From a virus (Duplodnaviria > Heunggongvirae > Uroviricota > Caudoviricetes): a DNA stretch of 27,042 bases. The translations under genes were made by a program, and so were the position numbers. The stretch lies in the IMG/VR virus record IMGVR_UViG_2751185961_000011; one strand, 5' to 3'. Positions 355 to 17,266 of this stretch are shown in pieces (the first letter of the stretch is position 1; the number at the start of each line of letters is the position of its first letter). The notes under the pieces are model-generated. The model did not search any database and was not told where the DNA came from. It worked only from the letters and a program-made list of their open reading frames with translations.

Positions 355-597
355 ATGATCGAAGCCTACAAAATACTTATTAATAACGCGTTGCAGCGTT
401 ACCACTTTGAACTCGCAAACAGGGGCGTAACTAAGGATGAAAGCCTTCGTAACTCACTGCGCGGCGCAATTATGGGACTGTATAACTGCGCGCTGGGCAG
501 CGATGACCGTGAAGCGCTGGAAGAATTAAAGTCGATTATGACAGAACTGTTTGAAGGTGAAATTGTCGAGCCTTACTTCACAGGAGTGGCAGCATGA
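355..597 (+). CDS. Hypothetical small early protein (80 aa)
   Basis: ORF with AAGGA-type RBS about 8 nt upstream of the ATG. Stop overlaps the next small ORF start (ATGA). Confidence 0.5.
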   Translation: MIEAYKILINNALQRYHFELANRGVTKDESLRNSLRGAIMGLYNCALGSDDREALEELKSIMTELFEGEIVEPYFTGVAA

Positions 598-719
598 GCA
601 TATTCCTTTCATGGGTAATTCTGATTATCTCCGTGCTTATGGTAATCGGCATTATGCGAATTATCCACACACTGAAGGATATCGAATTATTCTTTACCGG
701 CGATAAACGCCGTAAATAA
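594..719 (+). CDS. Small hydrophobic peptide (41 aa), putative single-pass membrane peptide
   Basis: Own translation: MSIFLSWVILIISVLMVIGIMRIIHTLKDIELFFTGDKRRK. ATGA overlap with the upstream ORF suggests translational coupling. Below the cutoff of the supplied ORF track, which instead shows an antisense ORF here. Confidence 0.3.
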   Translation: MSIFLSWVILIISVLMVIGIMRIIHTLKDIELFFTGDKRRK

Positions 720-933
720 AGCGAAAACCTTATGAAGAATGTAAAAGCAATACACACCATCGCCACTGTATGGGTGATATTTCAGGTGAGTGCGCTTATC
801 TGGTTAGCCCTGAAGATCTGGGAATAACCTGAAGCCGAAAGCAGGCGCGGAATAACACCAGAAAACACACGAGCAATTAATTAAGGCATTCATGCCTTCG
901 GGTTCCCTTTGTCTTTTTTTCAGGAGTCAACAA

Positions 934-1164
934 ATGAGAACAGCCGAATCACCCGGCAGAGAAATAACCGCCAGACCAGCTAACCATCATGCGCATATCA
1001 GCATGGCCGCAAGAAAAGCCGAGCGTGCACATATCTGCGAATTACTGCGCGAGCTGACTGAGACAGCGAAAGAGACACACACCTGTCCACAGGAAACCTG
1101 CGCAGCCATTGAACGACTGATTGCAATACTCGCCAACCCAGACGAACTGAAGGGGTGCGCATAA
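934..1164 (+). CDS. Hypothetical protein (about 76 aa)
   Basis: In-frame ATG at 934 inside the 892-1164 ORF, preceded by CAGGAG. Cys/His-containing but no recognisable motif. Confidence 0.45.
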   Translation: MRTAESPGREITARPANHHAHISMAARKAERAHICELLRELTETAKETHTCPQETCAAIERLIAILANPDELKGCA

Positions 1165-1745
1165 TGAACCATCTCATGATTGACACCGAAACACTGGGTA
1201 ACGGACCGGGCGCAGCCATATTCGCGATTGGGGCGGTGTTTTTCGACCCGTTCACCGGAAAGCTGGGCAAGCAGTTTGAGAAATTCATCGACCCGGTGGA
1301 TTCAGAACGCAACGGCGGAACCGTCAATGCAGCCACCGCTGTATGGTGGGCCGGACAATCCGTGGAGGCCAGATCCTGCCTGCGCAACGCAGAGGGAACA
1401 GAGCTTGCGGCAGTAACCGAATTTCTGGCGTTCATTTCACGCAATATGCATGACGAAAGCCCGGGCAATTCACTGACCATATGGTGCAAAGGCGCATCCT
1501 TCGATTTCCCGATCCTGAAATCCGCCATAACACGCACAGCCGGAGAAAAAAGCATCCCCTGGTGCTACTGGAACGAGCGCTGTATGCGCCCGCTTATCGC
1601 CATGGCTGAATCAACTGGATGGAAAATGCCAGGCAGATCAGGAAAGGAGGCTATTGCTCACACTGCACTGGGCGATGCCGTTTACCAGGCAAAGGTCGTG
1701 TCAGAAATCTGGCAGCGCTTCACAACACCATTCCTGAACATATGA
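1164..1745 (+). CDS. DnaQ-like (DEDD family) 3'-5' exonuclease
   Basis: N-terminal MIDTETLG matches the Exo I D-x-E motif. C-terminal HTALGDAV matches the Exo III H-x4-D motif. Size about 193 aa, placed upstream of dam as in P2/186-like early operons. Confidence 0.7.
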   Translation: MNHLMIDTETLGNGPGAAIFAIGAVFFDPFTGKLGKQFEKFIDPVDSERNGGTVNAATAVWWAGQSVEARSCLRNAEGTELAAVTEFLAFISRNMHDESPGNSLTIWCKGASFDFPILKSAITRTAGEKSIPWCYWNERCMRPLIAMAESTGWKMPGRSGKEAIAHTALGDAVYQAKVVSEIWQRFTTPFLNI

Positions 1746-1977
1746 GGTGAAGCCATGGTCGCCATCCTGAATGTGTGTTGCTGCCCCCCCTGAACGTGGA
1801 AAGAAAAGCCCGCGCATCGCTGCGTTTATTCCGCGACGGCGTGCGGAATTTTTCACGCATAAAACCCCACGACTACCTGGTAATAAGAATCGGTTTTCGC
1901 TGGCGATTGCTGAGCAAAAACAACGGGGCGTCATGGGATTTATTAACGCACGAAACCTATAACAAAGAGGCCGCGTT

Positions 1978-2958
1978 ATGAGCAAAGAACTGTTATCCGG
2001 CACGCCGCTTAAATGGGTGGGCGGAAAAAGTCGCATCATGAACACACTGAAGGCGCATCTGCCAGAAGCAGACTGCCTGGTTGAGCCGTTTGTGGGTGGC
2101 GCATCGGTATTCATGAACACCAGTTACAAGCGTTACATCCTGGGTGATTCCAATGGTGCGCTGATTAATTTCTACCGGCAAGCCAGGGACAACACCGACA
2201 GCCTGATCGACGAGGCGAAAACCCTGTTCCTGAACCACAACAACAGGGGTGACTATCTCATCATTCGCGAAACCTTTAACGCAGAGAATCATGCCTTCCT
2301 GAACAGCAGAACGGGAATAAGCGACCGCCGTGAACTGCGACTGGCCGCCATGTTTTTGTACCTGAACCGACACAGCTTTAACGGTTTGTTCCGCGTGAAC
2401 GGAAAAGGCGATTTTAACGTGCCTTTCGGCTGCTACCGCAAGCCCTACTTCCCTGAGCGTGAAATCCGCGCATTTGCAGACAAGGCAAACAGCACCCGAA
2501 CGCTGCTTATCCACGCAGATTTTAAGGATACGCTGAACTCTGCCAGTCACCTGTTCGGCATGGGCAACACGCTTTGCGTGTACTGCGATCCCCCTTACCT
2601 GCAATTCAGTGGCCGGGACAATTTTACCGCCTACGGAAAACCATTCGATGAAGACGAGCACGTTCGTCTGAGGGCAGCGCTTGACCGCCTTTCACAGGAA
2701 ACGGGCAGCATGACCAGCATCACCATCTCCAATTCCGACACACCGGAAACACGACGCATTTATCGGGGTTACCGGATGAACTGCATACAGGCACCACGAA
2801 GCGTTGGCGCAAGAACCCGGGAATCAGCACCGGAGGTTATCGCCACCCTGAGACAGTGCGACGCCTGCGGTCACCATGGCGGTGGCTACTGCCCGGACTG
2901 CGGACCTGTAACGGGAGATGCAACTTACAGCGTGATGTTTACCCCTGCCAGTACGTGA
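1978..2958 (+). CDS. dam: DNA adenine methyltransferase, Dam/D12-class N6-adenine MTase, with a C-terminal Cys-rich tail
   Basis: N-terminal WVGGKS and EPFVGGASVF (SAM-binding motif I-like). DPPY catalytic motif at 2587-2598. C-terminal CDACGHHGGGYCPDCG resembles a zinc ribbon. Good RBS (AAAGAGG). Confidence 0.85.
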   Translation: MSKELLSGTPLKWVGGKSRIMNTLKAHLPEADCLVEPFVGGASVFMNTSYKRYILGDSNGALINFYRQARDNTDSLIDEAKTLFLNHNNRGDYLIIRETFNAENHAFLNSRTGISDRRELRLAAMFLYLNRHSFNGLFRVNGKGDFNVPFGCYRKPYFPEREIRAFADKANSTRTLLIHADFKDTLNSASHLFGMGNTLCVYCDPPYLQFSGRDNFTAYGKPFDEDEHVRLRAALDRLSQETGSMTSITISNSDTPETRRIYRGYRMNCIQAPRSVGARTRESAPEVIATLRQCDACGHHGGGYCPDCGPVTGDATYSVMFTPAST

Positions 2959-2993
2959 ATAAACAGATGAATCAGTAACACCGGAGTCAGGAA

Positions 2994-3230
2994 ATGAATA
3001 GCGAAAACAACAAAGAGCTTTTGCGGGAATTGCGTCTCATCGCCCGTGCACATGAGGAAGCAGCAAAAGTTATCGCAGCTGCTGGAAGACCAGAGCTCGT
3101 TATCGCTTCAGCAATCTCACTGAGGATCACCATGGAAGCAATCCGGGTGATTCAGGATCAGGAAAGTGAAATCGCCACCCTTAAAAAGCAGCTCAACGAG
3201 AAATCTGCCGGGCAAAGGAGTCAGCAATGA
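2994..3230 (+). CDS. Hypothetical protein (78 aa), predicted helical
   Basis: ORF with RBS-like GGAGTCAGGAA upstream. No motif recognised. Confidence 0.5.
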   Translation: MNSENNKELLRELRLIARAHEEAAKVIAAAGRPELVIASAISLRITMEAIRVIQDQESEIATLKKQLNEKSAGQRSQQ

Positions 3231-3445
3231 TCCAGGAATCAACCGTTATCCGGTTCACAGCCAACGGCCGTCAGTACGAGGTAGACGAAAGCCTGATTGA
3301 CCAGGGCATGACACGCCAGGACTCACGCAATTCTGAGATGCATCACATCCGCCTTATCAACGGTTCGCACTTCTGCGCCACGAACATGGAAGAAGTACGC
3401 GTGCTGACAGCAACACGCAATACGGGAGGTAAAGCATGGCAGTGA
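3227..3445 (+). CDS. Hypothetical protein (72 aa)
   Basis: ATGA start/stop overlap with the upstream ORF (translational coupling). No motif recognised. Confidence 0.5.
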   Translation: MIQESTVIRFTANGRQYEVDESLIDQGMTRQDSRNSEMHHIRLINGSHFCATNMEEVRVLTATRNTGGKAWQ

Positions 3446-3786
3446 TTTATATCGCCGGTCCAATGACCGGATACAAAGATCACAACAGAACGGCGTTTTT
3501 CACAGAGGCGATGAGGCTCGCGGCAGACGGGCACGTTGTGCTGAACCCTGCCACGTTGCCGGAAGGATTAAGCCAGCAGCAGTACATGAGCATTTGTATT
3601 CCGATGCTCATGTGTGCCGATGCCATTTACTTACTGGAAGGCTGGGTGGATTCAGCTGGCGCGCGGGCGGAGTACGTAATGGCACTCAAACTGAACATGC
3701 CAGTGTCATTCCCGGAAAACCGGGCAGCCGGCGAAACCGTCGCGCAGCTGCTTCACAAATCAAAAGCCACACAGGCGACTGAGTAA
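3436..3786 (+). CDS. DUF4406-like / nucleoside 2-deoxyribosyltransferase-like small protein
   Basis: N-terminal MAVIYIAGPMTG... pattern is typical of the deoxyribosyltransferase-like fold proteins common in P2-like early regions. 116 aa. Confidence 0.5.
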   Translation: MAVIYIAGPMTGYKDHNRTAFFTEAMRLAADGHVVLNPATLPEGLSQQQYMSICIPMLMCADAIYLLEGWVDSAGARAEYVMALKLNMPVSFPENRAAGETVAQLLHKSKATQATE

Positions 3787-4224
3787 CCGACCGGAGATCG
3801 AAACATGATTGCGCGAAGAGCTACCAACCGTCTCACAGGCTTTATTCCAGGCAAGGTTGATCATGCACTCCATCACGGGGCTGTCACTTTCCTCAACAAA
3901 GGAGAGGCGCGCAATCATGCATTCCGGGGTGAGCACGTGGCGCTGGCTAATCAGTCTTTGATAGCTAAGCGCCTGCCATTCAGCCTTTTCAGCTCTGATA
4001 GAAAGAGAGGAAGCCATGACCTGCCACACCAGAAAGAGCACCACACTGGCGAAAACAAACGTTGCGCTGTCGCAAAAAATGAATGCGGCAACAATCGCAA
4101 GGAAAGCGCTAATCCTCAGAACCAAGGAAGCGCGACGGTGGAGAAGGCTTGTCATGTGTTCAAGCCAGTAGCTGTACCACAGGTCAAAAAGAATTTCGTA
4201 ATCAGAAGGGAGCTTATCACTCAT
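3760..4224 (-). CDS. Putative small membrane protein encoded antisense to the early operon (start uncertain; alternative in-frame start at 4284)
   Basis: Minus-strand ORF with two clear hydrophobic segments (LVLRISAFLAIVAAFIFC and FVFASVVLFLVWQVMASSL). The competing + strand ORF 3805-4911 translates to low-complexity sequence. Confidence 0.4.
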   Translation of the reverse strand: MSDKLPSDYEILFDLWYSYWLEHMTSLLHRRASLVLRISAFLAIVAAFIFCDSATFVFASVVLFLVWQVMASSLSIRAEKAEWQALSYQRLISQRHVLTPECMIARLSFVEESDSPVMECMINLAWNKACETVGSSSRNHVSISGRLLSRLCGF

Positions 4225-4607
4225 CAGAAACACCCCGCGTATGCAGACAATCACCAGTTGCCAGGTGATATTAATTCGCAACATTCTAACCACATCAGCA
4301 CGCAACACAAAAACCGCTTGCCAGCGCTCGTCGTGTCGGGTTACATTTCCGCTGCACCTCATAAAACGGGTGCCGGGTTTCGCAGCCTGCTGACAACCAA
4401 AGCGCACAACCGCGCCAGCGGTTTTTTTGTGCGTACTGTATTGCCACGTCTTTTTCGCGTCAGAATTATGGCGGGGCGTACGGGGCCGACTTCGGTCGGG
4501 CCGGGTTCTTTGGTTGCCGGTACTGCGAACCTCGTACGCCTCGCCACCCACAGTTTCGCAGCTCTGGATGGTGAGTTTTCAAAACTTACAACCAAAGAGG
4601 CCACACC

Positions 4608-4829
4608 ATGGCAAACCGCAAGCAACAGCGCGCCCGCGCTGAGCGTCTTCACATCCGCAGCGAAATCAACCGCAGACTCCATCGGGCTGCATCTGTCGCC
4701 TTTATCATGCAGTCAAACGTATTACACCGACTTAACGACGGTATCGCTGCCGGGTATTACGCGGCAGTCTTCAGCTATCTCGCCGAAGATCTGGCAGAAC
4801 TACAAAGCCTCATCAACCAGCACCGATAA
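4608..4829 (+). CDS. Hypothetical basic protein (73 aa)
   Basis: Strong RBS (AAAGAGG) 7 nt upstream of the ATG. Arg-rich N-terminus. Confidence 0.45.
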   Translation: MANRKQQRARAERLHIRSEINRRLHRAASVAFIMQSNVLHRLNDGIAAGYYAAVFSYLAEDLAELQSLINQHR

Positions 4830-4897
4830 ACCACATCCTGAAGCCATCCCGCACCCGTGCGCGGGAGGCTTCCGCACGTCTGTTACCGGAGGTTCTC

Positions 4898-5089
4898 ATG
4901 AAGAGCGTTAAGGGACTTTCAGATATTCAGGACTTTTTTAACTGGATGTGGGCGGTGGATCCCCTGCTGGCTTCCCGCCTGAACAACTGGCACGACTACT
5001 ACCGCCGCGCTGTAAACAGGCCGCCCGCAGCATCACCACATACGGGGATTTCTCCTTCACCGTTGACGGTCGTTACCGCGTGGACGTGA
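4898..5089 (+). CDS. Hypothetical protein (63 aa); may be the 5' part of a frameshifted gene continuing in 4948-5313
   Basis: GGAGG RBS 5 nt upstream of the ATG. Overlaps the next ORF in a different frame. Confidence 0.35.
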   Translation: MKSVKGLSDIQDFFNWMWAVDPLLASRLNNWHDYYRRAVNRPPAASPHTGISPSPLTVVTAWT

Positions 5090-5313
5090 AAGGTGACGGT
5101 GATGGCTTTGGTTTATTTCACATCAACGGCACCGACAGTACCGCCATCAGCTGGTCATCGTCAGAGATGGCACTGGTTCTGGAAATGACAACCCACAGCG
5201 TGGCCGTGAAAGGCATATACACCGCAGAAGACTTTATCGGTGAATACCAGCGCCTTCTCGTGCTGTACCGCGCGGCGTTTCAGGAGGTCACTGGCGGGGA
5301 GTACGACGCATGA
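4948..5313 (+). CDS. Hypothetical protein immediately upstream of and coupled to gene A (start uncertain; GTG at 4948)
   Basis: ORF ends with an ATGA overlap onto the gpA start at 5310. No canonical ATG near its 5' end. Confidence 0.4.
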   Translation: MGGGSPAGFPPEQLARLLPPRCKQAARSITTYGDFSFTVDGRYRVDVKGDGDGFGLFHINGTDSTAISWSSSEMALVLEMTTHSVAVKGIYTAEDFIGEYQRLLVLYRAAFQEVTGGEYDA

Positions 5314-8093
5314 GTGACCGCAATGCACAGCTGGCGTACCCGTGGAACGCACCGCTACCGGTTATCGATCCTGAAACGTTCGGCAGAGCACAACCAACCG
5401 CATTACGCCAGGCCATTCAGAGCTACATCAACGAGGACATTCGCATTGATGCCAGACTGGATGAAGAAACCGTCTCCTTCCTGACAAACACAGACGAAGG
5501 CAAGCGAATTAATTCGCACCTTCACCACGACGAAGAGCGTCGGATCAGACTGGAAAAACTGGCGCGGCACAAACGCGAAAATCCGCCAACGCTGGTATCG
5601 GAAGCCATGGCAGAACTTCGCGCCCTGCCCTCGTTTCTTGGTAACGCGCTCATTCGTGATCTGGCGCGTTTAAACCGCAAACAACAAAGCGCCCGCAATG
5701 AAGGCGTGAAAAACAACAACACTCACGTGGCCGATAACTTCGTTCGCCGTGGACTGCGCACACGCCTGAAACGCATCGAACAGGTGAATGAATGCTTCGC
5801 CACGACAGCATTCAAAGCCACCGCAGCACGCCATCGCCTTGATGAATTACTCATGCTGCCACAACTCAACCGTAATCAAATTCAGCGCCTTGCCACACTA
5901 ACGGCGGCGGCATTTTCCACCGAACTGGAACGCATATGTGATGAAGTTACTGAGCGGACAGGAAAAGGCGACGATAACCTGTTTACCTGGTTGCTGACTT
6001 ACCAGCAGCTGGCGCGCATGGCAATAAAACTGGGCGTGAACCCACCATACTGGCCGTCACTCGAGATCAGACGTGACCGCCGCACGGCACCAGACCCTGA
6101 ACTGGTACCGGGCGCGGTAATGCGTATCACCTGCGCCACCTGGTGGAACAACCAGCTGCGCCACCTCGCTGATCTCTGGCGGGAGGAATTACTGCGTGCC
6201 GCCGGAAGAGTATCGCGCAAGGCATCCCCCTACATCAGCCATGAGTCACTCCAGGAATTCCGGGAGAAACGCCAGCGCACCCGTGATTTTCTCAAAAGCT
6301 GGGACATTGAAAACGAAGACGGTGAACGCCTGAGTCTGGAGGACGTGTACTGGTCAGGGCTGGGGAATCCGCGCAACCGCCGCAACGAGATGATGGCCTG
6401 CGTCAGAGGGATGGAACAGGTCGCCGAATCGCGTGGTGACTCCGCGTTCTTCGTGACAGTAACCTGCCCTTCCCGCTTTCACAGCGTGAACGAGGACGGC
6501 AGCCTGAACCCGAAATACAACGGTGCCACCGTGCGCGATGCCAGTGATTATCTGGTTTACGACGTCTTTGCAGCTGCAAGAAAAAAACTCAACAAAGAAG
6601 GCCTGAGCTGGTACGGGGTGCGCACCGTTGAGCCACACCATGACGGCACACCGCACTGGCACATGCTGGTATTCACCGCCCCGGACAATGAAGAACGCAT
6701 CATTGAAATCATGCGTGACGCAGCAATCAAATCAGATCGCGCAGAACTGGGGGATGATATTTCTCCGCGCTTCAAATGCGAAAAAATCGACCCGGCAAAA
6801 GGCACACCGGCAAGTTACATTGCAACCTATATCGGCAAGAACCTGGACGCCAGCGCCTTCCATAACAATGACCCGAAAACCGGCAAACCTTACGCTGATG
6901 AGGAATCCGGAAAAACCATGGCGGAAACTGTGGAAAATGCCATTGCCTGGGCGAGCCTCCACCGCATCCGCCAGTTCCAGTTTTTCGGTATCCCGCCCCG
7001 CCAGGTATGGCGTGAACTGCGCCGTCTTGCCGGACAGATGGAGCGAAACCCGGCATCGCCAAAGCGCATCGACAATGACGACATTGATGCCATTCTGGCC
7101 GCCGCAGATGTGGGGTGTTTTGCCACCTACATGACTCGCCAGGGTGGTGTGAATATTCCGCGCAACCTGTATCTGATCCGCACCGCATACGAAACCGCAG
7201 ATGAGGCCAATGATTACGGGGAATTTCCTCAACGTATCTGGGGAATATGCGCCCCGTCGCTCGGCGAGCGCTACACCATCTGTACCCATCCGGACGAATG
7301 GAAACTGGTCAGAAAAGAAGCGAAATCCGACAACAGCACGGACGAGGGTTTTGACGTTGGGGGCGGCTTCGCCGCACCTTGGACTCGTGGCAATAACTGT
7401 CCCCGTGTACAGGAAACAGGCAACAGCGGGACAGAACAGTCGGAAGAGCAACCAACACCGTGGACGCAGATCCCTGACGGCGTTGATGTGGATGAGTGGA
7501 TGCGCTCACTGAAACGGCACGAACGCCGGGCGCTGATGCGTTCGCTGCGTGACAAACAGGCAAAAAACAGCAGTGATGAAATGCAGAACTGGACACAGAG
7601 CCGCAAACAGCCACGGCCTTTGCCTGATAACCACGAGTTACTCGCTAAAGAATGGCGGGAGTCTGCCGAATCTCTCGGCCTGCATATCGGTGAACAGCAG
7701 ATGCAGTACCTGTTACGGGGCGGCACTCTGTACGTTGACGGCAGCATCATTGCACCGCAGGGATTTGAAATTGTACGCAAACCGGATACCCGCCCGGACA
7801 GCCGAATCACGCAGCTCTGGCAGCGCCTGAGCCGTAATCACGGCGTAAGCAGCACGGAGATCCGCCATAACCCGGTCGCCAGCTATCTGGAGCAGCTCGG
7901 GGCATCAGACCCCGAAGCCGCCGCACGCCTGGCATCCACAATTCAGCAGGACCAGAACACCATGAAAACTCCCGTTACCGTGCTTTCTGACATGCTGCGC
8001 GCCATCCGTGACACAGAGCACGCACAAAGAATCAATGAAACCACTGAACGCGCCCGCCGCAAGGCTACTTTGCTCCAAAAGAGAGGCAAATAG
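5310..8093 (+). CDS. A: Rolling-circle replication initiator endonuclease (P2 gpA-like)
   Basis: 927-aa ORF. HUH motif HWHMLVF (His codons 6654-6662). Paired catalytic tyrosines Y-IAT-Y in SYIATYIGKNLD (Tyr codons 6816-6818 and 6828-6830), matching the phiX174 A / P2 A RCR motif 3. Position between the early genes and the hotspot matches P2. Confidence 0.9.
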   Translation: MSDRNAQLAYPWNAPLPVIDPETFGRAQPTALRQAIQSYINEDIRIDARLDEETVSFLTNTDEGKRINSHLHHDEERRIRLEKLARHKRENPPTLVSEAMAELRALPSFLGNALIRDLARLNRKQQSARNEGVKNNNTHVADNFVRRGLRTRLKRIEQVNECFATTAFKATAARHRLDELLMLPQLNRNQIQRLATLTAAAFSTELERICDEVTERTGKGDDNLFTWLLTYQQLARMAIKLGVNPPYWPSLEIRRDRRTAPDPELVPGAVMRITCATWWNNQLRHLADLWREELLRAAGRVSRKASPYISHESLQEFREKRQRTRDFLKSWDIENEDGERLSLEDVYWSGLGNPRNRRNEMMACVRGMEQVAESRGDSAFFVTVTCPSRFHSVNEDGSLNPKYNGATVRDASDYLVYDVFAAARKKLNKEGLSWYGVRTVEPHHDGTPHWHMLVFTAPDNEERIIEIMRDAAIKSDRAELGDDISPRFKCEKIDPAKGTPASYIATYIGKNLDASAFHNNDPKTGKPYADEESGKTMAETVENAIAWASLHRIRQFQFFGIPPRQVWRELRRLAGQMERNPASPKRIDNDDIDAILAAADVGCFATYMTRQGGVNIPRNLYLIRTAYETADEANDYGEFPQRIWGICAPSLGERYTICTHPDEWKLVRKEAKSDNSTDEGFDVGGGFAAPWTRGNNCPRVQETGNSGTEQSEEQPTPWTQIPDGVDVDEWMRSLKRHERRALMRSLRDKQAKNSSDEMQNWTQSRKQPRPLPDNHELLAKEWRESAESLGLHIGEQQMQYLLRGGTLYVDGSIIAPQGFEIVRKPDTRPDSRITQLWQRLSRNHGVSSTEIRHNPVASYLEQLGASDPEAAARLASTIQQDQNTMKTPVTVLSDMLRAIRDTEHAQRINETTERARRKATLLQKRGK

Positions 8094-8190
8094 CACTTTA
8101 GTAATCAAAATGATGATGAGAAAAAACAATTACAAAGTTGGATATGCCTTTTCCATCATGAGGGATGAGATGTGAATCGCTAACCGAATA

Positions 8191-8220
8191 TTGTGTTGAA
8201 TAGAATGCAATTGATATAAT
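8191..8220 (+). promoter_or_regulatory. Candidate sigma70 promoter for the island operon
   Basis: TTGTGT (8191-8196), 18-nt spacer, TATAAT (8215-8220) in the AT-rich region upstream of the island methyltransferase. Found by eye only. Confidence 0.3.
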
Positions 8221-8353
8221 TCCCCTTAATTCATTGAAAACTGGATTTTTTGCATAACTATGCAAATATCTATGGACGGCGACGATGTTTTTTATCGGGA
8301 AAACTCAAGTGCCATGTTAAGATTATGTTTATTTTTTACTGAGAAAATCGTGG

Positions 8354-9199
8354 ATGACAAAGCCTTCTCATTTTAGAACCCCTCTTCGTTATCCGGGAGG
8401 TAAGGCAAAATTCTTGCCACATATTGAACAAATACTCCGCAACAATGATCTCATTGGTGGATGTTATGCTGAACCTTATGCAGGTGGAGCCGGTGTAGCA
8501 TTAGGTTTGCTCCTTAACGGTCTTGTTGAAAATATCTTCATAAATGATATTGATCCTGCCCTTTATTCTTTTTGGTTTGCAGTGGTTAATCATAACGATC
8601 TGTTATGTGAAATGATTGATGAAGTTCCTGTGACTATTGAAAATTGGCATACTCAAAAGGAGATACTCCTAAACAATGATAAATATAGTATGCTTGAAGT
8701 CGCATTATCTACTTTCTTTTTAAATAGAACAAACCGTTCAGGAATACTTAAGGCTGGCGTTATTGGAGGGAAAGAACAAAAAGGACCATGGAAGTTAGAT
8801 GCAAGATTCAACAAAAAAGAGTTAATTAAAAGGATTGAACTAATTGGTGCATATAAGGAGAAAATTTACGTATCGAATTTTGATGCTGCAGATTTTCTGC
8901 TACACCAAAAAGCATTACTACCCCAAAATAGTCTAATATATCTTGATCCACCTTATTATGTTAAAGGAGCAGAGTTATATAGAAATTTTTATAAACATGA
9001 TGATCATGTAAAAATCGCTAATACACTACGTGAAATTCAACTACCTTGGGTTGTGTCTTATGACAATGTGCCTGAAATAAAAAGCATATATCATGAATTC
9101 AACATGACTGATTATACGCTTAATTATACTGCACAAGATAAGAAAAAAGGTCTAGAAATTATCATTTATAATCATGGTATAAAAATCCCTGACATTTAA
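8354..9199 (+). CDS. Dam-family (D12-class) N6-adenine DNA methyltransferase, island copy
   Basis: N-terminal PLRYPGGKAKF and AEPYAGGAGVALG (SAM-binding motif I). DPPY catalytic motif at 8945-8956. 281 aa. AT-rich codon usage unlike the rest of the prophage. Confidence 0.85.
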   Translation: MTKPSHFRTPLRYPGGKAKFLPHIEQILRNNDLIGGCYAEPYAGGAGVALGLLLNGLVENIFINDIDPALYSFWFAVVNHNDLLCEMIDEVPVTIENWHTQKEILLNNDKYSMLEVALSTFFLNRTNRSGILKAGVIGGKEQKGPWKLDARFNKKELIKRIELIGAYKEKIYVSNFDAADFLLHQKALLPQNSLIYLDPPYYVKGAELYRNFYKHDDHVKIANTLREIQLPWVVSYDNVPEIKSIYHEFNMTDYTLNYTAQDKKKGLEIIIYNHGIKIPDI

Positions 9200-9216
9200 A
9201 TTTAAGGATGATATAG

Positions 9217-10914
9217 ATGATTAAAGAAATTAGTTTTAAAAAATTTAAGAAACTGATAGATATTGACTTCTCATTCAATGAAGACATCAATATAATATCA
9301 GGAACCAATGGGACATGTAAGACAACATTGCTTCATTTAATTAGCAATGGTTTCCAAATACCACCATCTAGATCACAAAATTATTCAAATAGTAATTGTG
9401 TTAGAGTTATAAAATCTATAAACAAAATAGCCAACCCAAAAATGGAAGCAATTGTTAGGGAATCAAAAAATTACACCGATCCGGCAGAGGGAACAAAAGG
9501 TGTGTTATTTTCTATTAACTATTTGGATCATAGCACACTAGACTTCAGAAAGCACAACTCAAAAAATCCAGACGAAGCGCAACGGTATGCTATCAAACCA
9601 GTATACCCACGCGGAAAAGAAAAACAATCACTTCCAGCTAAACCAGTTTTATATCTTGGATTATCGCGACTATTCCCGATTGGTGAAACTAAAGACGACG
9701 CCCTTACAAAAATTCCGTTAAACCTACCAGAAGAGTATGTTGGTTATATATCGAAAATATATAATGAACTTTTGGGCATTAATATTATAAATATAGAATC
9801 AAACAATATCGGAGATTTTAAAGCTGGCCCATTATTTGATACCGATAACCCAGCAATTGATTCTAATACCATATCATCCGGGGAAGACAATATATTCATT
9901 ATAATCAAGGCATTAGTTAGCCTTAGGTATTATTTTGAATCACTTATTCAATCCACTGATCAAAAAGAAAGCATTCTGTTAATAGATGAATTTGATGCCA
10001 CTTTACATCCTTCTTTACAGATAAGATTATTAGATAAAATTTATCAATACGCAAAAGATTATAAGATTCAAGTATTTTTCACAACGCACAGTCTGACATT
10101 GCTAGAATATGCTTTTCATAAAAAATACCATGTTGTCTATCTAATTAACAATATTACAAAGGCTCTGCTTTTGGATAATCCTGATATATTAAAAATAACA
10201 ATGTATCTGAAAACACAAACAAAGGATGAGATATACACAAGGAACAAGATACCAGTTTTCACGGAAGATGAAGAAGCTCGCTTTTTATTTAATGAAATAC
10301 TTGGTTATTGGATAAGCAAATATCCAAATTTTGCTATAGTTAGTAATTCATTTCACTTAATTGATTGTTTCATTGGTGCAGACAATTTAAAAACTATTTT
10401 TAATGATTCTCATCTTAAGGAAACCTCGTTAAAATCAATTTGTATTCTTGATGGAGATCACAGCCCTGAGGATCAGAGAGGAATTATATCACTGCCGGGT
10501 GAAAAAGCTCCAGAACAATTGATATTTGAGCATTGTGAGCACCTTTATAATACCGACGACTCTTCCTTCTGGGAAAATCAGGATATAATTAACAATGGTT
10601 TTTCGAAAGAGTTATACTTACTCAAGATACGTCCTCAATTACAATCAATTGAAACTGAAATTCAGAAAAGAAAAGACAACCATGAGTCTACATCCGGTTT
10701 AAGAAGAAAATTAAATAAGAAAATATTCAATCAGCATATTGAATTCTTTAGAATGATTACAAGAAACTGGTTAAACAAACCAGAAAATCAGAAATCTCTC
10801 CAGTATTTTTACAATGGATTACGATCCTTATTCTACCGGGTTACACCAACAAACGGCATTGACAGAAAAATTTGGGATTTTGACTATAACAAAATCATTA
10901 AAGAGGATAAATAA
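9217..10914 (+). CDS. OLD-family-like ABC-type ATPase with putative C-terminal TOPRIM nuclease domain
   Basis: Walker A GTNGTCKTT (9301-9327). Walker B LLIDEFD (D-E codons 9985-9990). H-loop-like VFFTTHS. C-terminal acidic motifs VFTEDEE (10255-10275) and ILDGDHS (DGD at 10450-10458) fit the TOPRIM glutamate plus DxD pattern. 565 aa, close to P2 Old in size and in the P2 old locus. AAGGA RBS 7 nt upstream and 17 nt after the methyltransferase stop. Confidence 0.75.
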   Translation: MIKEISFKKFKKLIDIDFSFNEDINIISGTNGTCKTTLLHLISNGFQIPPSRSQNYSNSNCVRVIKSINKIANPKMEAIVRESKNYTDPAEGTKGVLFSINYLDHSTLDFRKHNSKNPDEAQRYAIKPVYPRGKEKQSLPAKPVLYLGLSRLFPIGETKDDALTKIPLNLPEEYVGYISKIYNELLGINIINIESNNIGDFKAGPLFDTDNPAIDSNTISSGEDNIFIIIKALVSLRYYFESLIQSTDQKESILLIDEFDATLHPSLQIRLLDKIYQYAKDYKIQVFFTTHSLTLLEYAFHKKYHVVYLINNITKALLLDNPDILKITMYLKTQTKDEIYTRNKIPVFTEDEEARFLFNEILGYWISKYPNFAIVSNSFHLIDCFIGADNLKTIFNDSHLKETSLKSICILDGDHSPEDQRGIISLPGEKAPEQLIFEHCEHLYNTDDSSFWENQDIINNGFSKELYLLKIRPQLQSIETEIQKRKDNHESTSGLRRKLNKKIFNQHIEFFRMITRNWLNKPENQKSLQYFYNGLRSLFYRVTPTNGIDRKIWDFDYNKIIKEDK

Positions 10915-10990
10915 TGTATTCTAATAGAATATAAACATCAAAGCTATATTTTTTACACATATCAAGAGTAAAAAATAATTTAACTTTTAC

Positions 10991-11030
10991 ATAACGACCT
11001 CTTTTACAAATAAGTAGAAAAGGTCGTTAT
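10991..11030. repeat. Imperfect 17-nt inverted repeat (hairpin) downstream of the island operon
   Basis: ATAACGACCTCTTTTAC (10991-11007), loop AAATAA, GTAGAAAAGGTCGTTAT (11014-11030); 15 of 17 positions complementary. Possible terminator or operator. Confidence 0.4.
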
Positions 11031-11153
11031 AACTCTCATCTCCATAGCATGTAATTTTCTTTGCATATTTTCACATAACAGTCAGGGATGTATTTATAAG
11101 CAACGTCGTATACATAGGCTCAATTTTTCTATAAATAAGCACTCCGTTCGGTT

Positions 11154-11180
11154 TGCACAATAATGCACAAATTTGCACAA
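11154..11180. repeat. Three direct TGCACAA heptamers phased at exactly 10 bp
   Basis: TGCACAA at 11154-11160, 11164-11170 and 11174-11180, followed by a T7 run, at the AT-rich to GC-rich transition before the cos-proximal region. Confidence 0.45.
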
Positions 11181-11471
11181 TTTTTTTGAACGACTTTTTG
11201 CCCTTTCGGCCCGCATGGCGGCTGGATCCGTCAAGGATCGTGCGTGCACAAAAAAAACGCGTTTTCTGCGCGCAGGCGACGAGGGAAGGGCGCCCGAATT
11301 GAGGGGTGGAAGGCAGGTTGCTTTATTTGGGGTCGTATTGCGCGTGATACGCCAGCAGTGAAGCCTGTTTTAAAAAACCACATCAAAACATGGTCAGGGA
11401 AACAGGCCGTCAGAATGCGTCTGGCGAGGTCGGAGATCGGGAGGGAAACGGACGTCAGGAGCTGGAGAGTC

Positions 11472-11494
11472 GGGGCATAAATTTTTTATGCCCC
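11472..11494. repeat. Perfect 10-bp-stem palindrome just downstream of the portal gene stop
   Basis: GGGGCATAAA (11472-11481) and TTTATGCCCC (11485-11494) with a 3-nt loop. Could be the Q-P operon terminator or a cos-associated element. Confidence 0.5.
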
Positions 11495-11521
11495 GGCGAA
11501 GCAGCCGACAAGCGAAGCGCG

Positions 11522-12565
11522 TCAGCTGGCGCCATCCTGAAGCAGCGAATAGGGATTAAAGCGCATCACTTCAACCCCAAGCCATTCATTGACATGCTTC
11601 ATCGCTTCCATGACCGGTTGCAACTCGTTGATGAAAAATACCCTCGCCGCCTTCTCAACGTCACCGAACGCCGCGTTCCCGTCAGGCATTGCCCCCATCA
11701 GCTGAGGCGGTACACGGTGAGCCGCAAGGATATCGTCGCGGGCACTCCCCTTGATGTTAAGGAATTCGTCCTTCGCGGTGATTTGCTGGAACGGCAGTAT
11801 TTGCACACCATCCTTGCCGCCACCTGGCGCGTGCAGAAGGATATTGCGGAACGCCCCCTTGCCACGGGATTCCGTGAGTGTTTTCTTGATGGCTTCCACG
11901 CTTTCAGCGTTTGCCTGGGCGGCACCAACATAGACAATGCACCCGGCATGTGAACCGTTGTCATAGTAGAGCTTGCGGAACGTATCCGCTGAGTTCGACA
12001 GACTCACCGACAGCACCCCACCGATATACTCCGGCATCCCGTAGATTTCCTGGTTGATATCGGGGTTCAGAACGTGGCACACAGCCCCCTTACGGAAAGC
12101 AAATTCAGAACCATCATCATTGAGGTACCAGTACGTATCGAGATCACTGCCCCGCCGCGTGTATTTCGCCAGCGCAGGACGAAGCGCAATGGGTTCACCG
12201 AACTTGTTGCGGCGGACTTCAAGATAGGCATTACCGAACACGAACCAGTCCAGCGCAAACGCGGAAAACGCCTGGCGGGACAGTAGCAGATGAGGAACAA
12301 AGCAGCCGTTCAGGGCATTACGCTTAAAATACAGGGCCGACTGGTGCCATGATGCACGACGTGAGGCGCGAGCAATGGCATTCCAGTCCATGGGGGTGTC
12401 ATAGTAGCGGCCATTATCGGCGCACGACATGTTATCAAGAAGATCAAGACGGCTTGCTTCATAAGGACCGTCAAACGTGAAAGCACTGAGTGACGGCGCT
12501 GATTTCAGTGCATCAGCCAGTGAGCCCGTGCCGCGCTTTCCGGTGTATTTTTTACGTTTACTCAT
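11522..12565 (-). CDS. Q: Portal protein (P2 gpQ-like)
   Basis: 347 aa on the minus strand, immediately downstream of the large terminase gene; size and position match P2 Q (about 344 aa). Basic N-terminus MSKRKKYTGKRG. Confidence 0.88.
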   Translation of the reverse strand: MSKRKKYTGKRGTGSLADALKSAPSLSAFTFDGPYEASRLDLLDNMSCADNGRYYDTPMDWNAIARASRRASWHQSALYFKRNALNGCFVPHLLLSRQAFSAFALDWFVFGNAYLEVRRNKFGEPIALRPALAKYTRRGSDLDTYWYLNDDGSEFAFRKGAVCHVLNPDINQEIYGMPEYIGGVLSVSLSNSADTFRKLYYDNGSHAGCIVYVGAAQANAESVEAIKKTLTESRGKGAFRNILLHAPGGGKDGVQILPFQQITAKDEFLNIKGSARDDILAAHRVPPQLMGAMPDGNAAFGDVEKAARVFFINELQPVMEAMKHVNEWLGVEVMRFNPYSLLQDGAS

Positions 12566-12570
12566 TGTGT

Positions 12571-14304
12571 TCAGAACTCCATTGCAAAGCCACGATTATC
12601 CTCACGCTCTGCGCCGATTGGCTCATTGATAACAGCAAGCATGGTTGCCCAGGCGAGATCACCATGACTGACACTGCGTGAGCGGTCAGTGTCATAGGTG
12701 ATATAGCCGCCGGGCGTCTGTATTTTTCGCACCGATGCAAAGGCCTGTACCAGGTCGCGCTCGCTGCGGTCATACTCCCAGCGTCCGGCACGGACCACCT
12801 GAAGCATCTTCATGACCAGCGCCCGCTTTGAAGCGATATTAAAGTTATACGGAACAGCCAGGGGGAAGAATTTTTTCACTATCTGATAAACCCCTTCCCC
12901 GTTCCCGCCGGTCACATCAATCCCGATATGCTTCACATTGTATTTTTGGGTGTACTCCTCAATCAGGGCCGCCTGCTGTTCAAACTCCATGCCCTGAACC
13001 CTGACGGTTTCCACCGTACGAAAACGCCCACCGGCAACAAGGGGTGGCACGCACACCGACAGCGCCCCGCAGTCCCCCTTCCCGCTGCTGCCGTTGGCGT
13101 CATACCCGAGCCAGACTTCCCTCACCCCCATAGGGCGGACAGCAAAAGGCTTCCAGTCCGGCCATTCGTCATAGCCATCAACACCGCACCCGACGAGCGT
13201 ATTCAGACTGAAGGCTGCCTCACCATCACGGACAAATTCGCACATGTACAGATTGCGAAATTCACTTTCTGTATTTTCGCCGCGAATATCATCAATACTG
13301 GTGAACTGCCATCCGTTAGCGACAGCATCCTCAATGGTGACAATCTGCCGCCACGTTTTATCGGGAAAGAGCACGCCCCCCTTCAGGTGGGCATGTGAAA
13401 CATCAAATTCATTGCGTTTTGAGCGCGGCCGCTCGCTGTTCCAGCGGTCCCCTGTCCAGAACTGATACGCCTCATGCGTCTCACCTGACGGCGTAGAGAA
13501 GTAAGTGCGCGTAAGCCCTTTCAGCGTCGCCATTGCCCCGGCAACCTTCCTGAGGTTCACAAAGTTACTGACCCAGAAAAATTCGTCGAATTTCAGATGA
13601 CCGGTATAGGACTGCGCGGTGGCAGCTGACGTACCGAGGAAGTGCAGCTCCGCGCCGTTGGACAGCACGATCTTGTCGCCCCCTTTCAACTCAACATCCA
13701 CTTCCAGCGCCGCCTGCTGAATAAAATGCTTGAACTGATACGCCTGACGACGGGAGGCGGATAAAAATATCTGGTTGCGCTGATACCCGGCGGAGACATC
13801 ATCACGCAGTGCATCAAGGAGCGCCTCGCGCGCAAAATACCAGGTCGCACCAATCTGACGCGACTTCAGGATCATGCGGTTGCGGTGGTGGCGGTTTTCG
13901 TACCATTCACGTTGATGCCACGCCAGCGTCGGGAGGATTTTTTCACGAAGCGCGACAATCTGTTCTTCGGTGAAGTGATTTTTCAGTCTGCGTTTACGGG
14001 GCTTTTTACCGGAAACGGCCTGTTCTCCCTGACCGTCATTCAGTTTTTTCAGCTGGCGCGTGAGAAGGTCAATTTCCTTAAAATCGCTGCCGCTTTTCTC
14101 TGTTTTTGTGGTGAGCTGGATCAGGCGCGCATCAATGGACTGGGTGACCCGCTGGATCGGAGGTGTGGCATCCCACTCATCGCGTTTTTTCCATGAGTAA
14201 ATCGTGTTCTGGCTGATCCCCATCAGTTGCGAGATTTCCGCAGGTGTGTACCCTTGCCAGTAAAGTTGTCTTGCCCTTATGCGGACAAGTGCATCCTGAA
14301 TCAT
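12571..14304 (-). CDS. P: Terminase large (ATPase) subunit (P2 gpP-like)
   Basis: 577 aa. N-terminal HTH-like YTPAEISQLMGISQNTIYSWKK. Transcribed divergently from O, as in P2. Confidence 0.88.
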   Translation of the reverse strand: MIQDALVRIRARQLYWQGYTPAEISQLMGISQNTIYSWKKRDEWDATPPIQRVTQSIDARLIQLTTKTEKSGSDFKEIDLLTRQLKKLNDGQGEQAVSGKKPRKRRLKNHFTEEQIVALREKILPTLAWHQREWYENRHHRNRMILKSRQIGATWYFAREALLDALRDDVSAGYQRNQIFLSASRRQAYQFKHFIQQAALEVDVELKGGDKIVLSNGAELHFLGTSAATAQSYTGHLKFDEFFWVSNFVNLRKVAGAMATLKGLTRTYFSTPSGETHEAYQFWTGDRWNSERPRSKRNEFDVSHAHLKGGVLFPDKTWRQIVTIEDAVANGWQFTSIDDIRGENTESEFRNLYMCEFVRDGEAAFSLNTLVGCGVDGYDEWPDWKPFAVRPMGVREVWLGYDANGSSGKGDCGALSVCVPPLVAGGRFRTVETVRVQGMEFEQQAALIEEYTQKYNVKHIGIDVTGGNGEGVYQIVKKFFPLAVPYNFNIASKRALVMKMLQVVRAGRWEYDRSERDLVQAFASVRKIQTPGGYITYDTDRSRSVSHGDLAWATMLAVINEPIGAEREDNRGFAMEF

Positions 14305-16456: not shown

Positions 16457-17266
16457 ATGCTGACACCGGCACAACGATACCTTCAGCGCGCGATGGCGCA
16501 TCATCGGGCTGATCCATTCAATCGCGAAGAGCAGCGAACACGAACGGCACATGAACAGGTTCTTCACCAGTTACGCCTCGCACAGTTGCAGCTGAATGGC
16601 GTGCAGTCAAACATCGCGAAAGCGGAGCTGAAGAAGCACCTGATACCGAATTTTGAAGGCTGGATCGACGGCACACTGGCAGGCGACAGCGGACGCCAGG
16701 ACGAAGTCATTACCACCATGATGGTGTGGGCCATTGACTGCCGGGATTATCCGCTGGCGCTGCGTATCGGTGAGTACGTTATTCGTCACCGGCTGGCACT
16801 GCCGGACAACTTCGGGCGCGATGCGGCGACCGTACTCACCGAAGAAATTGCCGAAGTTGTGCTGACAGAAGCCGCCACCAACAGCGAAACCGACTTATCC
16901 GGCTATATCCGTATGCTGGACGAGCTGGATGCACTGGTTCACGACCAGGACATGCCGGATCAGGTTCGTGCAAAACTACATAAGGCGCGGGCATTTTCAC
17001 GGCGCGCATCAGGCAGTACGGAAGACATGACTGTGTCACTTGGTCTGCTGCGTGAAGCCATGCGCATTAATCCGGCAGCGGGCGTGAAGCGTGAAATCGC
17101 CACGCTGGCCAGAAAGGTATCAAAGGTTCAGCCGGAACCGGAAAAACCGGCAGAAGAGAAAAGTAAATCGAAAGCAACATCAGGGCGCAAAAAGCCGACT
17201 ACAAAAGCGACGGCCAGAAAAGCCACGAAAAAAACCGCCGCAAAACCGGCGCGCAAGGCGACCTGA
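16457..17266 (+). CDS. M: Terminase small (endonuclease) subunit (P2 gpM-like)
   Basis: 269 aa at the gpM position, with a Lys/Ala/Thr-rich basic C-terminal tail (KKPTTKATARKATKKTAAKPARKAT). Confidence 0.8.
   Translation: MLTPAQRYLQRAMAHHRADPFNREEQRTRTAHEQVLHQLRLAQLQLNGVQSNIAKAELKKHLIPNFEGWIDGTLAGDSGRQDEVITTMMVWAIDCRDYPLALRIGEYVIRHRLALPDNFGRDAATVLTEEIAEVVLTEAATNSETDLSGYIRMLDELDALVHDQDMPDQVRAKLHKARAFSRRASGSTEDMTVSLGLLREAMRINPAAGVKREIATLARKVSKVQPEPEKPAEEKSKSKATSGRKKPTTKATARKATKKTAAKPARKAT

Follow-up and report, generated by a model that had tools for sequence, protein, structure and literature searches.

What is the role of three exact copies of TGCACAA, set 10 bp apart, at the edge of the hotspot island of a P2-family prophage? 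The stretch of DNA analysed here (the window, 27,042 nt in full) is a P2-family (Peduoviridae) prophage with the gene order island, repeats, Q, P, O, N, M. Its island encodes a D12-class adenine methyltransferase (PADLOC PD-Lambda-5_B match, 1e-121) and a partner ATPase of 565 aa with generic AAA_15/21 matches only (PtuA, GajA, AriA-like, about 1e-15); it is transcribed rightward and is closed by its own hairpin before the repeats. The same methyltransferase and ATPase pair is also present in several E. coli prophages, for example RM14723. From the letters of the window, the original prediction had proposed that the repeats bind the terminase small subunit or a host factor, or that they regulate the island, and had located them between the island and a GC-rich region thought to contain cos. 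The GC profile agrees with this placement, as the array sits at the boundary between the AT-rich island (GC 0.25-0.32) and the backbone (GC about 0.56). P2-family cos sites, their 55-bp core and hotspots abutting cos are already known, and the hotspot-cos-Q arrangement has been described for P2-like phages (Rousset et al. 2022, PMC9122126). The coordinates of all features are collected in Table 1.

All three heptamers are perfect matches on the plus strand, with start-to-start distances of 10 and 10 bp, and the array reads TTTGCACAATAATGCACAAATTTGCACAATTTTTTTG. TGCACAA is not over-represented in the whole window (7 copies vs 7.05 expected), but 4 of the 7 copies are clustered inside 98 bp. Triple exact 7-mers at a period of 9-11 bp were obtained in 0/1000 windows simulated under a first-order Markov model of the window, and TGCACAA is the only 7-mer of the window to occur in triplicate at any period of 8-15 bp. 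Given the simulations and the clustering, a chance origin of the phased repeats is excluded. The count of three proved incomplete, as a fourth direct TGCACAA (R4, 11245-11251, TGCACAAAAAAAA) had been missed; it is followed by an A8 run.

Table 1 Features of the window around the repeat array. Positions refer to the whole window.
Feature	Position	Strand	Remarks
Hotspot island, two genes	8354-10914	+	Left neighbour of cos; AT-rich; outside the function of the repeats
R1 TGCACAA	11154-11160	+	Begins with the first base of the conserved cos module
R2 TGCACAA	11164-11170	+	
R3 TGCACAA	11174-11180	+	R4 lies 71 bp and predicted cosN 101 bp downstream
T7 run directly after R3	11181-11187	+	At least 90% conserved in 26 non-redundant modules
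GC-rich R3-R4 spacer	11200-11240	+	Lineage-variable; CCGCCC...GGCG / CCAGnnCTGGCGCGG-like element kept
R4 TGCACAA and A-run	11245-11257	+	At least 90% conserved; positional counterpart of TGCATTAAAA
GC-rich imperfect inverted repeat CGCGTTTTCTGCGCGCA (I1)	11258-11274	+	17 bp, between R4 and cosN
Predicted cosN, 19-nt cohesive-end segment GGCGACGAGGGAAGGGCGC	11275-11293	+	Placed purely by collinearity
Whole cos module	11154-11287	+	Extent is the window portion common to a satellite-like element
Terminator tQ of Q	11471-11495		Inverted repeat I3
gpQ portal gene	11522-12565	-	Right neighbour of cos
gpP terminase large subunit	12571-14304	-	Pfam PF06056 (5e-26), PF03237, PF17289
gpM terminase small subunit	16457-17266	+	Pfam PF05944 (3e-38)

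The elements follow one another in the order R1-R2-R3, T7 run, spacer of ~55 bp, R4 with its A-run, 17-bp GC-rich inverted repeat and predicted cosN, which would start 95 bp to the right of the end of R3. The T7 run is the inverted counterpart of the A-run after R4, with which it forms inverted repeat I5 (TTTTTTTG/CAAAAAAA). Between R4 and predicted cosN, the minus strand carries a terminator-like hairpin, GCGCGCAGAAAACGCGT followed by T8 (11273-11257), which could stop read-through of the Q/P operon into the hotspot, or could be a structural element of cos. The inverted repeat at this place is the positional analogue of the P2 palindrome CCGCCCCGTGAAGCGGGCG. On the minus strand the P2 palindrome, CCGCCCCGTGAAGCGGGCGG, likewise precedes TTTT. 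An Rfam scan of 10800-11600 gave no match.

If the repeats belonged to the island, they would not be expected beside unrelated cargo. BLAST against phage genomes revealed that homology to the window starts at 11151-11154 (query 252-255) in phages with other upstream cargo: P88-like phages (Xuanwuvirus), 503458, Shae_phiSM and the Enterobacter phage phiT5282H (Novemvirus) all share this start at R1, whilst upstream of it they carry ParM and partition genes, a peptidase or a membrane protein. Directly left of R1 these phages have an unrelated terminator-like hairpin that is part of the cargo. The phiT5282H block is only 73% identical to the window, yet it retains both TGCACGATAGTGCACAAATTTGCACAATTTTTTTGA and, as the fourth copy, TGCACAAAAAA. 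Pattern scans of IMG/VR and GTDB representative genomes located the array beside a Q/P pair in many Enterobacterales, spanning Escherichia, Salmonella, Citrobacter, Enterobacter, Kluyvera, Pantoea, Erwinia, Mixta, Izhakiella, Trabulsiella, Kosakonia, Symbiopectobacterium and Arsenophonus, and the window region matches 1130 of 5426 complete E. coli genomes.

The original prediction had suggested comparison with related P2-like prophages as a check. We aligned 26 diverged modules with a pairwise identity of at most 93%. Columns conserved at 90% or above comprise the three heptamers, the T-run, the fourth TGCAC(A/G)AAAA, and GCGCGCAGG followed by a GGYGACGGGGGAACAGCC-type segment, the conserved 19-mer being of the GGYGACGGGGG type; the 3-bp spacers between the repeats and the centre of ~55 bp are variable. 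As these first scans had required the repeats, a second search was anchored on the cosN side (GCGCAGGTGACGGGGGAACAGCC). This recovered the full array in 113/132 modules, most of the others having a one-base CGCACAA variant at R1 or R2, and the offsets of the array from the anchor were fixed at -123, -113 and -103. Among the 98 distinct modules, 81 have TGCAC(A/G)A and 4 have CGCACAA at R1, whilst 90 have TGCACAA at R2 and 90 at R3. The heptamers thus behave as expected of a cosB-like array, with multiple copies of a short motif beside cosN that are conserved as sites while the spacers vary. The array is retained regardless of the identity and orientation of the cargo and of the presence of par genes, and the repeats appear to be part of the backbone, in the cos module, and not of the island.

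The strongest evidence that R1-R3 lie within cos comes from satellites, which have only this module in common with helper phages. In P2/P4, the packaging signal is the one sequence that a satellite must have in common with its helper (PMC9122126). Six loci carry the module with neither portal nor terminase nearby (L160, L153, L149, L132, L131 and L138). Their satellite-like gene content consists of AlpA, a toprim primase (889 aa), a tyrosine recombinase, the module, a 264-aa protein, a capsid gene and a P4-type integrase; the capsid gene encodes a P2-family major capsid protein (PF05125, 1e-81), and the elements have two tyrosine recombinases and are without tail genes. The E. coli JP538 satellite (L160, about 378-12900) is integrated beside hpt and has Icd-like and ogr/delta-like zinc finger genes; BLAST aligns it to the window at 11154-11287 only (134 bp). 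Izhakiella australiensis D4N98 harbours a satellite-like element and a P2-like prophage in one genome, and over the 1 kb surrounding the module the pair have only 153 bp in common, at 84% identity, starting from the first T of R1. We detected neither psu nor sid in the satellite-like elements, whose layout differs from that of classical P4, and among the loci examined no classical P4-like satellite (psu/sid) carries the P88-type module. As in the hotspots of Rousset et al. 2022 (PMC9122126), an anti-phage island adjoins cos and cos is the only homology between helper and satellite; that study is without the repeat array or the P88-type module, and the satellites found here differ from P4 in having their own capsid gene.

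Where within the module would the DNA be cut? The cos site of P2, P4 and 186 has a conserved 55-bp core with 19-nt 5' cohesive ends, according to Ziermann & Calendar 1990 as related in PMC9122126, PMC3931495 and PMC5694545, and this core is given as the required region in PMC3931495, PMC5694545 and PMC9594776. In P2/P4 this core runs TGCATTAAAA, then CCGCCCCGTGAAGCGGGCG, then cosN GGCGAGGCGGGGAAAGCAC; in P88-type modules the order is TGCACAAAAAAA, then CGCGCTTTTTCTGCGCGCA, then GGTGACGGGGGAACAGCCC. The 19-mers of the P88 type (GGTGACGGGGGAACAGCCC) and of the window (GGCGACGAGGGAAGGGCGC) are each identical to P2 cosN at 13/19 positions, and 101 bp separate R3 from the 19-mer in P2 (72 + 29) as in the window (71 + 30). 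Because of this 19-mer likeness and equal spacing, we predict cosN at 11275-11293. The original prediction had placed cos only vaguely, in the GC-rich region, and the interval given here narrows that placing. Three sister lineages with TGCACAA repeats (L015, L080 and L081) have at the cosN position GGCGAGGCGGGGG, which agrees with P2 cosN over its first 12 nt (12/12), and the ends of Ralstonia phage phiRSA1 are GGTGAGGCGGGG (PMC5694545).

Other placements of the ends were considered and set aside. The start of the linear P88_4B11 record NC_049391 (window 11198/11199) is not a measured end, its nt 1 having been set relative to reference genomes (PMC6969025). An alignment of P2 TGCGCGC, right of cosN, to window CTGCGCGC, which puts cosN over R4, was dropped because the collinear alignment gives both the 13/19 19-mers and the 101-bp distance from R3 to cosN. 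Contig ends inside the module are no guide to termini, since only one MAG contig ends there (L157) and the other apparent ends are storage-chunk boundaries.

The comparison with P2, P4 and 186 reveals a common plan written in different letters. As in these phages, the site in the window lies between the gpA-side hotspot and the portal gene Q, shows the same element order (a TGCA-type site with an A-run, a GC inverted repeat and a GGYGA-type 19-mer) and is common to helper and satellite. The CCGCCC...GGCG / CCAGnnCTGGCGCGG-like element of the spacer also occurs in P2-type and 186 cos spacers, with CCAGnnCTGGCGCGG itself present in many P2-type and several P88-type spacers. P2 differs from the window in its motif (TGCAT vs TGCACAA), in the sequence of its GC inverted repeat and at 6/19 positions of the 19-mer. 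P88-type sites are conserved as sequence over all 134-153 bp, R1-R3 included, whereas P2-type homology begins only at the core. Blastn with the window region did not recover P2, P4 or 186; with the architecture alone conserved, the P88-type cos is a distinct type within the P2 family.

This comparison raises the question of whether P2-type sites, too, have an array upstream of the core. P2-type homology was found in 2153/5426 complete E. coli genomes; in P4-like elements as well as in prophages carrying other cargo, it begins at TGCATTAAAA. Relative to TGCATTAAAA, TGCA sites stand at -94, -82 and -72 in P2 (L005, 2942-2970), at -95, -82 and -72 in P4 (right end of L130) and at -95/-91, -82 and -72 in 186 (L289, 602-629); in the window, the TGCACAA copies stand at -91, -81 and -71 relative to R4. 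Across 51 P2-type contexts with mutually non-homologous upstream sequences (loci L161-L286), TGCA(T) occurs at -72±1 in 43, at -82±1 in 39 and at -90 to -95 in about 35, as against 1-3 of the 51 at other upstream positions. These results suggest that three phased sites, some seven turns upstream of the core site, are common to the whole family, the P88 type having the sharpest form of this array. Since a few P2-type contexts, such as L161, are without the upstream array, it may be a packaging enhancer and not a strict requirement. An extra TGCA is also seen at -6 from TGCATTAAAA in P2-type loci.

We then considered which protein might read the repeats. Two phage proteins are candidates: gpM, and the N-terminal Terminase_5/homeodomain-like helix-turn-helix (HTH) of gpP (aa 7-63; PF06056 5e-26, HTH_23 8e-8). 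Both differ between the P2 and P88 types, including the putative recognition helix of gpP (RPTVQSWKQR vs NTIY[A/S]WKKR). Covariation of gpM or of the gpP HTH with motif type was uninformative as a way of choosing between them, as the differences extend throughout both proteins. Within one host species, phage lineages differ in having TGCAT or TGCACAA at all four sites at once, and for this reason we infer a single phage-encoded reader, either gpM or the gpP HTH, in place of a host factor. Of the three options first suggested, the terminase array has the best support, though in general form: the comparative evidence places the repeats in the packaging (cos) module, and the gpP HTH is a candidate besides gpM.

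The window itself provides a natural swap. Its Q and P show 91-97% identity to their L021/L126 counterparts (95-97% for gpP) and about 72-73% to those of P88. In the left arm of the module (11154-11274), identity is 93% with P88 and 75% with L126; rightward of it (11275-11455) the balance is reversed, with 91% for L126 and 65% for P88. The breakpoint of this chimera thus coincides with the left edge of predicted cosN. Since the window combines L126-like Q/P with a P88-like left arm, an L126-type terminase is apparently compatible with a P88-type left arm, and all that P88-type and L126 left arms have in common are the R motifs, the T-run and R4. Recombination at cos has been proposed as a driver of hotspot exchange (Rousset et al. 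2022, PMC9122126), and a breakpoint at predicted cosN is consistent with exchange of the adjacent hotspot promoted by cos ends.

Taken together, the position of the repeats, the selective conservation of the heptamers, their sharing with satellites and the collinearity with P2, 186 and P4 suggest that R1-R3 and R4 are the elements by which the cos packaging site of a P88-type phage (P2 family) is recognised, forming a cosB-like array to which terminase would bind; we put the probability of this reading at roughly 0.75. The repeats are most likely the conserved left edge of a cos signal of ~140 bp common to helpers and satellites, serving as a docking array for terminase. An oligomeric terminase component (gpM, the small subunit, or else the N-terminal HTH domain of gpP) would bind R1-R3 side by side on one helix face, and the same assembly would touch R4, seven helical turns away, through bending or wrapping of the spacer. 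The gpP nuclease would thereby be set on cosN, about 30 bp beyond R4, where staggered nicks would generate 19-nt cohesive ends. After cutting, the repeats would lie within the last roughly 120 bp at the right end of virion DNA. As the island abuts the cos signal, the first base of R1 would be the limit for cargo swapping.

In phage lambda, cosB consists of the gpNu1 sites R3/R2/R1 and an IHF site beside cosN. Lambda cosB and the window array are alike in having several short-site copies beside the nicking site, which suggests an oligomeric terminase assembly, and A/T tracts, which suggest DNA bending. The window differs in having gpM (PF05944) and the Terminase_5 HTH of gpP instead of gpNu1, direct heptamers with strict 10-bp phasing, an array on the future right genome end and no evident IHF site. 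P2 terminase, unlike that of lambda, uses monomeric circles.

An alternative is that the heptamers are the site of a host DNA-bending or nucleoid protein, an IHF-like accessory to terminase, and are not read by a phage protein. Lambda cosB uses IHF, and the 10-bp phasing and the flanking A/T tracts (T7 after R3, A8 after R4) would suit bent DNA. However, TGCACAA is, by inspection only, unlike the IHF, Fis and CRP consensus sequences, and the motif spans many Enterobacterales genera in which it always travels with the phage module; the joint switch of four sites between P2-type TGCAT and P88-type TGCACAA in the same species, E. coli, is likewise not expected of a site read by a host protein. 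We consider this host-factor reading, which the original prediction had included, improbable. Equally, the repeats might have no function as sites and be conserved merely as a homology arm for cargo exchange, or by hitch-hiking beside cos. That phages with different cargo share a boundary exactly at R1, that recombination at cos has been proposed (Rousset et al. 2022, PMC9122126) and that the window is chimeric, with its breakpoint inside the module, would all fit such an explanation. It does not account for heptamers whose conservation far exceeds that of the 3-bp spacers and the centre, for a P2-type motif kept with its positions amid non-homologous surrounding sequence, or for satellites that retain the array though their hotspot is on the other side of cos, and we regard it as decidedly improbable.

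The remaining alternative, also raised at the outset, makes the repeats operators or a promoter element that controls or insulates the island, bound by Ogr, Cox, a repressor, or ParR at a P88 centromere. P2 TGCAT repeats do overlap the region upstream of the leftward old-tin transcript starts, and P88 has parM and a partition gene just upstream. Against this, the island of the window points rightward and has its own closing hairpin, 11154-11190 contains no promoter-like site, the minus-strand hairpin at 11273-11257 is the only terminator-like site, and the motif is unlike the TGT-N12-ACA Ogr site. The array is, moreover, kept in satellites and beside unrelated cargos, irrespective of cargo orientation and of par genes; a parC/iteron function fares no better, as the window is without par genes and the array persists with unrelated cargos and in satellites. 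We consider regulation of the island very improbable, and return to terminase docking as the preferred reading.

In the literature searched, in which Ziermann & Calendar 1990 is represented by later papers, we found no extended cos architecture, neither a P88-type module nor a phased array upstream of the core, and nothing relevant on TGCACAA, P88 cos or Xuanwuvirus cos. We propose tentatively, at somewhat less than even odds, that the phased array ~70-90 bp upstream of the 55-bp core is a general and previously unremarked second recognition element, that the TGCAT or TGCACAA motif defines packaging-specificity groups setting the matches between helpers and satellites, and that the array is the inner limit of the hotspot, deciding the partners for cargo exchange. 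An extended cos signal would account for the sharp boundary of the hotspot, and predicts that P2-like prophages of E. coli fall into two or more packaging-specificity classes, with matching satellites. Cosmids and phage-like particles for DNA delivery are built with P2/P4 cos cassettes, and in one such study longer cos flanks improved transduction for a reason left unexplained (PMC9594776). An extended signal of about 140 bp, once defined as R1-R3, R4 and cosN, would offer a rational minimal cassette. Finally, enterobacterial P2-like or satellite modules were also seen in assemblies labelled as Firmicutes (L142/L146, a Bacillota MAG; L136, Vagococcus sp.; L157, a Planococcaceae MAG), which most likely reflect contamination or mis-binning and not true host range.
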